Part shown: positions 11,823 through 14,839 of the stretch, piece after piece
Position numbering within the stretch: position 1 is the first letter of the stretch
Layout: each line of letters opens with the position of its first letter
From: Fibrobacteria bacterium
GTDB taxonomy: Bacteria > Fibrobacterota > Fibrobacteria > UBA11236
Length of the DNA: 15,049 nucleotides
Assembly (NCBI GenBank): GCA_043732185.1
Contig: JAYTHY010000029.1
Coordinates: 1-15,049, forward strand
Reading direction: 5' to 3'
Made by a program: the position numbers and the translations under genes
Notes under the pieces: model-generated
Database searches by the model: none
Told to the model about the DNA's origin: nothing
Seen by the model: the letters and a program-made list of their open reading frames with translations, nothing else

Positions 11823-12242
11823 GTGCCTACAATCAGCCAGTTGATCCGCAAGGGCAGGAAAAAGCCAGTTGTCAAAAGCAAAGCTCCTGCCTTGATGGGT
11901 GCCCCGCAAAAGCGCGGCGTTTGCACTCGTGTTTATACCACCACGCCTAAAAAGCCAAACTCCGCCTTGCGCAAGATCGCCCGCGTGCGTCTTTCCAACA
12001 AGATGGAAGTGACGTGCTATATTCCAGGCGAGGGTCATAACCTACAGGAACATTCCATTGTCCTCATTCGTGGTGGTCGTGTTAAGGATGTTCCTGGTGT
12101 ACGCTACCATATTATTCGGGGAACCTTGGACACCTCCGGTGTCGAAGGTAGAAAGCAAAGCCGATCCCTGTACGGCGTGAAGAAGCCAAAGGCTGGCGCC
12201 GCTGGTGCCAAAGGCGCAGCGCCTGCCAAAGGCAAGAAGTAA
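11823..12242 (+). CDS. rpsL: 30S ribosomal protein S12
   Basis: [60 protein letters not shown]; Ala/Lys-rich C-terminal tail; GTG start, SD GGAG 11808-11811. Confidence 0.99.
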
Positions 12243-12776: not shown

Positions 12777-12786
12777 CCTATGCTTG

Positions 12787-12818
12787 CTAAAAAACCCCGG
12801 TTTTCCGGGGTTTTTTAG
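12787..12818. terminator. Strong, probably bidirectional intrinsic terminator downstream of rpsG
   Basis: Perfect 14-bp inverted repeat CTAAAAAACCCCGG-TTTT-CCGGGGTTTTTTAG: GC stem with A6 before and T6 after. Confidence 0.9.
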
Positions 12819-12889
12819 TTATTATCCCTTTTTGAGATCGAACCTTCCAAATCAGCATTTACCAGGATGCTCTTAACGGGCCTAGCAGC

Positions 12890-14839
12890 ATGTCCTCCAT
12901 CGCTAAAGAAACCCGTGCCATTGCCATCCTCGCTCATGTGGATGCTGGAAAAACCACGGTATCCGAAAGACTATTGTATTTCAGCGAAGCCATTCCCGGG
13001 CTCGGCGAGGTGGATGAAGGTCTCGCCACCATGGATTATCTGGAAGAGGAAAAAAAACGCGGCATCACCATTGAGGCAGGCATAGCGTCTTATCAGTGGA
13101 AAGGGACGCAGGTCACCTTTGTGGACACACCCGGCCATGTGGATTTTGGCGTCGAAGTGGATTTCGCATTGCAGGCCGTGGAGGGTGTCATTCTGGTTCT
13201 TTCCGGAATCAGCGGCATTGAATCGCAAAGTCTGGAGGCCTGGGAAAAAATCCGCGCCAACCGGAACCAATCCATCATTTTCATCAACAAGCTGGACATC
13301 TCTGGATCCGACTACCGCAAGGTGATGCAGCAGATTCAAGTTTTGTTCGGTGTGCATCCGGTGGCATTGACTATTCCCGTTTACATCGACGGAAAAATCG
13401 ATGGAGTGGTCGATGTCTTAAATCAGCTGGCGCTTTATCGCTCGGTGGAAAACCCGCGGAAGCTTATCAAGGGCGAGGTTCCGGCCTTTTTGGCAGAGGA
13501 ATACGCAATGGCGCGCAAGGATTTACTGGATGTCGCGAGCACATTCAATGACACCTTGGCCGCTGCCTATTTTTCTGGTGAAGAAATAAAAAATGAAGAC
13601 ATCGTCATCGGGTTGAAGTTGGCCATGGAAAGTGGTGGTAGCATTCCCGTTTACATGGGATCGGCTATCAAGAATGTCGGCATTAGGCAGCTTATGAACG
13701 GAGTCAATCTGCTCCTGCCTCCGCCAGCCATAAAACCGGAGTTCGCGCTCTCCCTTGGTTTTGTGATCAAAATACGACATTACCAGAACATCGGAAAAAT
13801 ATTTCTGGTAAAAATATTCAACACCCAAGCGCTAAGCGGATTGGAAAACGTACGCTTCTTCCGGGTTTTCGCAGAGAGTTTGGAGGAAGTTAAGAATATC
13901 ACCGAGATTCGGGCTGGCGACATTCTCGCCCTTGAATCACCGCATCATTTTCGCATGGGTCAATATTTACTGACCGATGGCCGGCTCGATCTTGGATCTG
14001 CTCCGAGTGCATTGCTCAAGGTCTACCGGCCCTTGTTGCAATCACGCATTGAGCTCGTTCATGCCGATGATTTCGATTTCGTAGATAAGACTCTTAAACA
14101 GCTTGCCGAAACCGAGCCTTCCATTTCCATCCTACCAGATAATTCAACCGGTGGGTGGCTCATCAGCACGGTGGGTGAACTACAACTCGATGTGTTTTGC
14201 AAACGACTGAAAAAAGATCACAAATGTGACATTAAGATTGGCGCGCCCAGCGTCCGTTATCTGGAAAGGTTAAAAGCACCGCAGCTTGAAGTGGAAAATA
14301 CCGTAATGGCCATGGGCATGGAGGTCCGCGTTGTAGCGGATTTCCAAAACAGTTCGGATGACGAAAAAAATTCCTTGGTATTCGTTCCAAAAGGTGAGCC
14401 TGGGGAATATCGAGAGGTATTTGAAGCCACATTCGACCTCTTCTGCAGTCAGGGCAGTTGTGGATTTGGTACGATTGCCGGACTCACCTGTAAAATTCAG
14501 CATATTTCCGGTAGCCAAGGGCCAATTCCACTGCCTTTGCTATCTCGGTGTTTTTCGGATTTGCTGAAATTACACTTAACATGCGCTCAATTTGAGATTT
14601 TAGAGCCCTTAATGCGTTTGGAGATCATCATTCCAGACGAATTTTGCGGAATGGTCTTGGCCGATTTGGCCTCACGAGGCGGGATTATTCGAAAAATGGA
14701 CTCAGATGGATATAACTCGATAATTCTGCTGGAGATACCCTTGGCGAATACCTTCGGCTATACTACTTTACTGCGCTCCTTATCAAAAGGGTTGGGTGTT
14801 TACGTTCTTACCTATGAAAAACATGGGGTAAGCAGGTAA
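12890..14839 (+). CDS. fusA: Highly divergent elongation factor G paralog (fusA-like translational GTPase) in the str-operon fusA position
   Basis: G1 AHVDAGKTT, G2 RGITI, G3 DTPGHVDF, G4 NKLD, G5 GSA; G' motif GVVDV; domain III GELQL; domain V LEPLMRLEI..P..F.G.VLADL..RGG and FGY...LRS.SKG.G. Domains II and IV are degenerate. The symbol reflects synteny and homology, not canonical function. Confidence 0.88.
   Translation: MSSIAKETRAIAILAHVDAGKTTVSERLLYFSEAIPGLGEVDEGLATMDYLEEEKKRGITIEAGIASYQWKGTQVTFVDTPGHVDFGVEVDFALQAVEGVILVLSGISGIESQSLEAWEKIRANRNQSIIFINKLDISGSDYRKVMQQIQVLFGVHPVALTIPVYIDGKIDGVVDVLNQLALYRSVENPRKLIKGEVPAFLAEEYAMARKDLLDVASTFNDTLAAAYFSGEEIKNEDIVIGLKLAMESGGSIPVYMGSAIKNVGIRQLMNGVNLLLPPPAIKPEFALSLGFVIKIRHYQNIGKIFLVKIFNTQALSGLENVRFFRVFAESLEEVKNITEIRAGDILALESPHHFRMGQYLLTDGRLDLGSAPSALLKVYRPLLQSRIELVHADDFDFVDKTLKQLAETEPSISILPDNSTGGWLISTVGELQLDVFCKRLKKDHKCDIKIGAPSVRYLERLKAPQLEVENTVMAMGMEVRVVADFQNSSDDEKNSLVFVPKGEPGEYREVFEATFDLFCSQGSCGFGTIAGLTCKIQHISGSQGPIPLPLLSRCFSDLLKLHLTCAQFEILEPLMRLEIIIPDEFCGMVLADLASRGGIIRKMDSDGYNSIILLEIPLANTFGYTTLLRSLSKGLGVYVLTYEKHGVSR

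Follow-up and report, generated by a model that had tools for sequence, protein, structure and literature searches.

A stripped-down EF-G paralogue in the fusA position of class Fibrobacteria and its spdEFG1-like partner

What is an elongation factor G (EF-G) for once the tip loops of its domain IV are gone, its GTPase is intact and it still sits in the str operon? The question is raised by the window studied here, the whole stretch of DNA that was analysed, which is a single 15,049-bp contig (G000:C29) of a sediment Fibrobacteria genome with ratings of 100% for completeness and 1.2% for contamination. The fusA position of this contig, between rpsG and tuf, is occupied by an EF-G paralogue that we refer to as P0001. 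Split EF-G systems such as spdEFG1/2 and mtEFG1/2 are a natural experiment separating the parts of EF-G that serve translocation from those that serve recycling, and P0001 is an extreme new form of this known theme that is at present mis-annotated. Its family is the most stripped-down second EF-G found here, lacking the tip loops and the C-terminal helix and having a shorter domain II, and this extreme stripping coexists with strong purifying selection, occurrence throughout a whole class and a cultured representative. Based on the comparative analysis below, we give a probability of about one half to the reading that P0001 is a lineage-specific, hyper-diverged spdEFG2-like factor that would split ribosomes together with RRF, the ribosome recycling factor.

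Architecture of the paralogue and its partner

An earlier reading of the contig (the original prediction) had described a 649-codon open reading frame (ORF) without interruption and with intact G1-G5 motifs, in which the domain IV loop motifs were lost, YRET and RNIGI changed, domain II shortened and the C-terminal helix cut. An ORF check and an alignment with the EF-Gs of Klebsiella and S. aureus, on which the motif comparison is based, confirmed each of these points. The GTPase motifs are AHVDAGKT (aa 15-22), RGITI (57-61), DTPGH (79-83), NKLD (133-136) and GSA (257-259). In domain IV, the loop I motif KQSGGRGQYGHV is replaced by NTVMAMGMEVRV, leaving the loop reduced to a tight turn (AMGMEV), GGVIP of the GGxIP motif is absent by deletion, and GSYHDVDSSE has become ISGSQGPIPLP, exchanging the HxVDSS loop for a proline-rich GPIPLP. 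Elsewhere YRET reads YLER and RNIGI reads RAIAI, domain II is shorter by ∼19 aa at its start and by ∼11 aa around RVYSG, and the C terminus ends ∼20-25 aa short of canonical EF-G, removing the C-terminal helix.

These losses are reflected in profile searches. Pfam recovers GTP_EFTU, EFG_III and EFG_C in P0001 and neither EFG_IV (PF03764) nor GTP_EFTU_D2, and every NCBIfam model scores under its own cut-off, the best being TIGR00484 (341 bits, cut-off 659.4). A custom hidden Markov model (HMM) of domain IV built from 21 canonical EF-Gs, which scores 130-177 bits on canonical EF-Gs and 24-25 bits on Tet(M/O/W), finds no match in P0001. The protein fits EFG I in its predicted fold and in its rpsG-tuf position, and departs from it in the TIGR00484 cut-off and the domain IV motifs. 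We also considered and rejected an EFG II identity, as EFG II is described as having a divergent G1 and having lost RGITI (PMC3150367), whereas P0001 has AHVDAGKT and RGITI; the EFG II-like proteins of the phylum carry GHGxSGKT in the alignment.

The original prediction had pointed to the structure of domain IV as informative, and a confident EF-G domain IV fold was obtained. AlphaFold2 (AF2) predicts a five-domain EF-G fold for full-length P0001 with a predicted local distance difference test (pLDDT) score of 82.6, matched by Foldseek to EF-Gs at template modelling (TM) scores of 0.6-0.8. Modelled alone, aa 452-572 reach a pLDDT of 94.1 with EF-G domain IV topology, matching domain IV of EF-G and mtEFG2 at TM 0.65-0.82; the best match is mtEFG2 (7nsh_BC, E 2.9e-8, TMq 0.76) with many EF-Gs close behind, and there is no Tet protein among the 46 matches listed. 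Domain IV is thus predicted to be retained as a body with its tip cut back.

The genome encodes two EF-Gs, P0001 and a second one of 715 aa, P0002 (G000:C88:39247-41358), in agreement with the earlier proposal that another EF-G would be found outside the str operon; with the genome rated complete, P0001 is not its only EF-G. P0002 scores 952 bits with TIGR00484 and provides the sole EFG_IV match in the genome, the remaining GTP_EFTU matches being RF3-, LepA/TypA- and IF2-sized proteins. The alignment reveals a three-residue KDG insert in switch I of P0002, the reported signature of spdEFG1 (Margus 2011, PMC3150367). Among solved structures it comes closest to mitochondrial EF-G1 (778 bits, compared with 660 bits for E. 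coli EF-G), and it carries a lysine-rich C-terminal extension, as do all eight spdEFG1 copies aligned from the phylum. By these features P0002 is an spdEFG1/mitochondrial-EF-G1-like factor and, having a normal tip, probably the one that moves tRNAs in this genome. It also has a 12-residue insert in its G domain (aa 73-84, between G2 and G3), which is missing from the seven other aligned spdEFG1 copies. RRF is present in the genome (221 bits) and in 40 of 41 class Fibrobacteria genomes searched, the sole miss being a 66%-complete genome.

Distribution, selection and the neighbouring classes

We surveyed 121 Fibrobacterota genomes, 58 of class Fibrobacteria and 63 of other classes. The P0001 family is confirmed in 53 of the 58 class genomes and in none of the 63 others: in 8 of 9 genomes of family f1, the single f2 genome and 44 of 47 f3 genomes (2 by profile search alone), a further 2 f3 genomes having probable copies with partial matches. 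The single f4 genome has a divergent form adjacent to tuf. The number of Pfam EFG_IV matches per genome shows a complementary distribution, one match being found in 53 class Fibrobacteria genomes and 1 genome of other classes, two in 5 and 13, three in 0 and 48, and four in 0 and 1, respectively. In the five class genomes with a second EFG_IV match (G005, G022, G064, G088 and G116), that match may stand for either an additional EF-G or a Tet gene that was acquired.

Beyond the survey, a search of 5.8 billion proteins returned more than 100 full-length relatives of 36-81% identity, and PF03764 is absent from all relatives among the 120 matches listed, the query itself aside. Those with names are called "GTP-binding protein" of Fibrobacteria, Fibrobacterota or Fibrobacteraceae, and one is labelled Mucilaginibacter. 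Among 1.84 billion representatives, nearly all matches above ∼300 bits are 620-690 aa long and have no domain IV signal, and in a FastTree phylogeny of 179 sequences these proteins form one clade of 44 (support 1.0) with a three-member "f4-type" sister group; no closer family was found elsewhere among those representatives. The possibility of a lineage-specific subfamily, raised in the original prediction, is borne out by this distribution and by the selection described below: P0001 belongs to a subfamily that evolves fast and, going by labelled sequences, is restricted to class Fibrobacteria.

The nearest proteins outside the family have names for 3 of 10 clusters (two from Planctomycetota, one from Pseudomonadota) and, in another set, for 1 of 10 (Desulfovibrio). 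EF-G-like "GTP-binding proteins" without a domain IV signal also occur in a Desulfovibrio metagenome-assembled genome (MAG) and a Planctomycetota MAG (P0232 and P0227). Extreme erosion of domain IV may have happened several times, Desulfovibrio and Planctomycetota both being spd lineages. In the ESM Atlas, the nearest clusters outside the family are EF-G-family clusters of Actinomycetota and Planctomycetota, which we take as a lead only.

Gene order in f1 is rpsG-paralogue-tuf. In G064 and G104, rpsG is followed on the same strand by the paralogue and tuf as a pair, at a distance of 14 and 44 kb, and in genus g7 the paralogue is found 54-82 kb downstream of rpsG, without tuf. In a congener of the source genome (G102:C51, locus L017), the match to the orthologue is split into aa 1-281 (82% identity) and aa 283-649 (69% identity), both within a single open frame of 786 aa, implying an in-frame insert of ∼35 aa at the junction of the G domain and domain II and a long upstream open stretch.

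The paralogue is under purifying selection and is not decaying. Over 13 close pairs with finite dS, Nei-Gojobori (NG86) ratios of nonsynonymous to synonymous substitution rates (dN/dS) range from 0.030 to 0.179 across the whole gene and from 0.00 to 0.21 within domain IV; the pair of the source genome with G102 was excluded as its dS is saturated in three domains and in the whole gene. Every homologue fetched has an open frame, with no internal stops in the listed matches, and 69 columns are invariant across 44 family members, including G522, G525, G527 and D557 in domain IV. The original prediction had held that frameshifted or neutrally evolving orthologues would speak against a specialized factor, and neither is what we find: selection is purifying overall and in domain IV. 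Given the confident fold, the intact GTPase motifs and this selection, we read P0001 as functional. Across the class the protein has changed quickly, f1 and f3 copies being 35% identical overall and 17% in domain IV, compared with 66% and 59% for spdEFG1 of the same genomes.

In the other Fibrobacterota classes, the corresponding slot holds a different EF-G. A protein of ∼692 aa follows rpoC-rpsL-rpsG in six of eight loci fetched, with tuf immediately next in three. Like P0001, it shares its genome with an spdEFG1 copy (60-63% identical to P0002), evolves fastest in domain IV and has altered tip motifs: GGxIP and the histidine of HxVDSS are kept in none of eight, and in loop I the GG is replaced by AG in two of eight and by DK in one of eight. 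Unlike P0001, it retains EFG_IV, D2 and the C-terminal helix, and passes TIGR00484 (897-910 bits), its Pfam EFG_IV score being weak (72-78 bits vs. 124-158 for other EF-Gs). Judging from the motifs at these loci (including L043, L048 and L053), a str-operon EF-G unfit for translocation looks to be a feature of the phylum and not of the class only.

Candidate functions of the paralogue

Precedents for a division of labour come from several systems. spdEFG1 and spdEFG2 are reported to co-occur where EFG I is missing, dividing the two jobs of EF-G (PMC3150367), and in Borrelia and mitochondria translocation and recycling are described as divided between two paralogues, EF-G2 of both being the recycler and spdEFG1-type factors not recycling in the systems tested (PMC3150367, PMC8203779). 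In the account given for mitochondria, the long C-terminal helix and the extension of EF-G1mt keep it from recycling, a shorter C-terminal helix and the lack of an extension allow EF-G2mt to bind next to RRF, and the loop I glycines of EF-G2mt are altered, likewise those of Borrelia EF-G2 (PMC8203779). The Fibrobacteria pair resembles these systems in that P0001 is partnered with an spdEFG1/mtEFG1-like translocase and RRF in the absence of EFG I, has an intact GTPase, a tip unsuited to the decoding centre and no C-terminal extension, and has mtEFG2 as the top fold match of its domain IV model. We favour the reading of P0001 as an RRF-dependent splitting factor because P0002 has the C-terminal extension, RRF is retained, and the second EF-G has an inert tip and is unobstructed at its C terminus. 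As we picture it, P0001 would be a functional ribosome-dependent GTPase of EF-G architecture in the ancestral fusA position that has lost tRNA translocation, a task that would be performed by the spdEFG1-type P0002. It would bind the post-termination ribosome bearing RRF and split the subunits using GTP and a rigid domain IV, devoid of decoding-centre loops, levered against RRF, and the absence of the C-terminal helix would remove an RRF clash of the kind that bars mitochondrial EF-G1 from recycling.

P0001 nevertheless goes well beyond the known members of this theme. spdEFG2 and EF-G2mt are described as having loop I at full length, changed at single glycines, and EF-G2mt as keeping a 12-aa C-terminal helix (PMC8203779), whereas P0001 has a turn for loop I, a shortened domain II and neither GGxIP, HxVDSS nor the helix. 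In a phmmer search of the PDB, P0001 matches mtEFG2 at 228 bits, below canonical EF-G at ∼276-277 bits. Another parallel may be the divergent lEFG of Leptospira, given as a probable spdEFG2 orthologue (Atkinson 2015, PMC4342817) in line with the "highly diverged EFGs with extensive deletions" mentioned for L. interrogans (Margus 2011, PMC3150367). Going by description only, it is likewise a second EF-G in an spdEFG1 lineage that is too diverged for subfamily HMMs and trees; it comes from a different phylum.

Several results weigh against the recycling reading. Removing loop I from E. coli EF-G is reported to leave recycling intact, but removing loop II (583-589, HDVDSSE) to abolish it (PMC4666400), and in the motif table P0001 lacks any counterpart of loop II. 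The C-terminal region of EF-G2mt is reported to touch and stabilize RRF domain I (PMC8203779), and P0001, having no C-terminal helix, differs from EF-G2mt in this region. A predicted complex of P0001 aa 379-649 with the RRF of its own genome scored 0.43 (best control 0.00), with at least 94% of contacts shared between runs and a partner pLDDT of at least 82. Of the solved complexes, 116 of 157 attain the mark for such scores, as do 2 of 215 mismatched pairs; at 0.60 or below, the figures are 18 of the 157 and both mismatches. The score is weak support, and it may reflect structures already learnt by the predictor, since EF-G-RRF complexes have been solved. Two of the 58 class genomes, G034 (98% complete) and G090 (95% complete), have no copy of the family, the gene being either dispensable there or lost in assembly beside the repeated tuf. 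Finally, approximately unbiased (AU) tests rejected a clade of the family with the sister-class slot EF-G (p 0.016 for full-length sequences and p 0.0025 for domains G+III+V), whereas a clade with Tet was not rejected (p 0.578, G+III+V), the constrained tree being 2.5 log-likelihood (lnL) units better than the free tree.

It is possible, although we consider it unlikely, that P0001 is a translational GTPase with another, new job independent of RRF, such as rescue of stalled or hibernating ribosomes, biogenesis or quality control, and that spdEFG1 has regained recycling here. The loss of both tip loops together with the C-terminal helix, more than has been described for either EF-G2mt or the EF-G2 of Borrelia, would suit such a job, as would the strong terminator-like hairpin between rpsG and the gene and the two class genomes in which no copy was found. 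The low identity of domain IV between f1 and f3, combined with tight constraint within genera, suggests lineage-specific partners. Positive evidence for any particular alternative role is lacking, however, RRF is retained and well conserved, and the failure of spdEFG1-type factors to recycle in the systems tested is matched by the C-terminal extension kept in the spdEFG1 copies of this phylum.

Quite improbable in our view is a Tet-type reading, in which the paralogue is related to the ribosomal protection proteins, chromosomal and inherited vertically, and enters the A site and dislodges a bound small molecule or factor; it would have displaced fusA in the Fibrobacteria ancestor, with spdEFG1 performing both translocation and recycling. 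This reading has a precedent in annotation. The supplement of Atkinson 2015 lists for Fibrobacter succinogenes S85 CysN, two EF-Tu, IF2, LepA, RF3, spdEFG1, Tet and TypA and no spdEFG2, the Tet entry being a 653-aa "small GTP-binding protein" binned at 304 bits, and spdEFG1 in Fibrobacter is also noted there (PMC4342817). In our search of the literature, with most subscription-journal papers outside its scope, no paper discussing the Fibrobacter homologue itself was found. P0001 and Tet(M)/Tet(O)/Tet(W) have in common a length of ∼640 aa, a deletion of ∼19-20 aa at the junction of the G domain and domain II, AHVDAGKTTL and Y-x-E-R in place of YRET, and they are adjacent in the tree. We rejected Y-x-E-R and KTTL as markers of Tet kinship, as both recur in unrelated EF-G-like proteins with weak domain IV signals (P0241, P0233 and P0261).

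P0001 falls under every Tet cut-off, scoring 264 bits with tet_protect (NF012153, cut-off 775) and 204 bits with NF033148 (cut-off 1100), and matches TetO and TetM in the PDB at 164 and 159 bits, compared with 276 bits for EF-G. It is 24% identical to Tet(M) against 27-28% to EF-Gs, and in domain V 22% against 33-38%. The domain IV loops and C-terminal extension of Tet proteins are functionally important, and P0001 has neither this extension nor the loop motifs PPNPFW and YYSPVSTP, and keeps the G' segment that is missing from the three Tet proteins compared. It is, moreover, chromosomal, vertically inherited, class-wide and in the fusA slot.

The original prediction had looked to a tree to place the protein among EF-G and Tet lineages, and here the outcome is mixed: a tree with both was built and puts the family beside Tet, and grouping with the sister-class slot EF-G is rejected. 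The trees comprise the EF-G types of the phylum, the Klebsiella and S. aureus EF-Gs, three Tet proteins taken from plasmid records and further representatives that carry no label, with labelled spdEFG2 and lEFG not among them. The full-length tree unites the family and the f4-type proteins in a long-stemmed clade beside Tet, with a Shimodaira-Hasegawa-like approximate likelihood ratio test (SH-aLRT) support of 96. No stems in the tree are longer than those of the family and Tet, making long-branch attraction a live explanation for this adjacency, and with more taxa on conserved domains (52 sequences) the family sits in a backbone that lacks resolution (support 46). Because of its position, the complementary distribution of EFG_IV and the absence of a closer family elsewhere, we lean modestly towards an origin by runaway divergence in place of the tip-relaxed str-slot EF-G of the phylum.

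The weakest alternative, that the gene is what is left of fusA after decay or neutral drift, is hardly credible: the very fast divergence between families and the loss of every domain IV motif would fit it, but it is refuted by the low dN/dS and the invariant columns, alongside open frames in all homologues and a confident predicted fold.

The consequences differ with the function. Should P0001 recycle ribosomes, it would set the minimal domain IV for this job and challenge the reported requirement for loop II; should it not, then spdEFG1 would not in every case be limited to translocation, and P0001 would have a new role. A more specific claim, to which we would give rather less than even odds by some distance, is that this class-wide EF-G pair, which includes that of the culturable F. 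succinogenes, has as its second member, lacking loop I, the E. coli recycling loop and the C-terminal helix, either a minimal-domain-IV splitting factor or a housekeeping sister of Tet. In the former case, RRF-dependent splitting would need far less of domain IV than work on E. coli implies, a bare lever being enough; in the latter, a housekeeping Tet sister with an A-site-clearing job would hint at a cellular factor ancestral to the Tet proteins. A correction of the annotation is in order, since the 2015 census bins the family as "Tet" and NCBI calls it "GTP-binding protein", which could swell the tally of tetracycline-resistance homologues in metagenomes from rumen and sediment.

The contig and its features

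Coordinates of the paralogue, its domains and its immediate surroundings are given in Table 1. The gene order on the contig is tuf 3′ end, tRNA-Trp, nusG, rplK, rplA, rplJ, rplL, rpoB, rpoC, rpsL, rpsG, P0001 and tuf 5′ end, and tRNA-Trp is the sole Rfam match over the window.

Table 1. Features of the str-operon region in the 15,049-bp window
Feature	Position	Strand	Evidence or remark
rpsL	11823-12242		upstream of rpsG
rpsG (S7), 5′ neighbour of the P0001 ORF	12275..12751	+	TIGR01029, 200 bits
Perfect 15-bp palindromic hairpin with U run, in the rpsG/P0001 gap	12786..12819	+	-24.2 kcal/mol, z -6.7, 0/200 shuffles as stable
EF-G paralogue ORF (P0001)	12890..14839	+	649 aa plus stop, uninterrupted frame
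G domain with G' insert, aa 1-280, G1-G5 intact	12890..13729	+	Pfam GTP_EFTU 6-277, E 5.8e-46; alignment
Shortened domain II, aa 281-378	13730..14023	+	no Pfam D2 match; model: beta strands 290-349, low-confidence loop 368-378
Domain III, aa 379-455	14024..14254	+	Pfam EFG_III 381-451, E 3.4e-10
Domain IV, aa 456-568, predicted fold kept, tip cut back	14255..14593	+	no PF03764; structure prediction, motif table
Domain V, aa 569-649, protein stops here without C-terminal helix	14594..14836	+	Pfam EFG_C 569-644, E 9.5e-18
tuf 5′ end, 3′ neighbour of the P0001 ORF	14952..15049	+	runs off contig

Short contigs of other sequencing runs span the rpsG-P0001 junction in three of four runs (X5, X6 and X7) and the P0001-tuf junction in four of four (X3, X5, X6 and X7). 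As both junctions are bridged in other runs, an assembly artefact is ruled out as the source of the gene order. Copies of tuf lie at both contig ends (2-346 and 14952-15049), so the nusG-rpoBC-str block is enclosed by a repeated gene, which probably accounts for the block forming its own short contig. In run X6, one low-depth contig has a +1 insertion and a -1 deletion six bases apart at 14131-14137, keeping the frame and altering two codons of domain III.

A simple scan for promoters and terminators found sites no more numerous than in shuffled sequences and missed the hairpin between rpsG and P0001. This hairpin lies directly 3′ of rpsG and has an A run on one side and a U run on the other. 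It looks like an intrinsic terminator or attenuator, which by its symmetry of flanking runs could stop transcription in both directions, and transcription of P0001 may as a result be separate from that of rpsL-rpsG.

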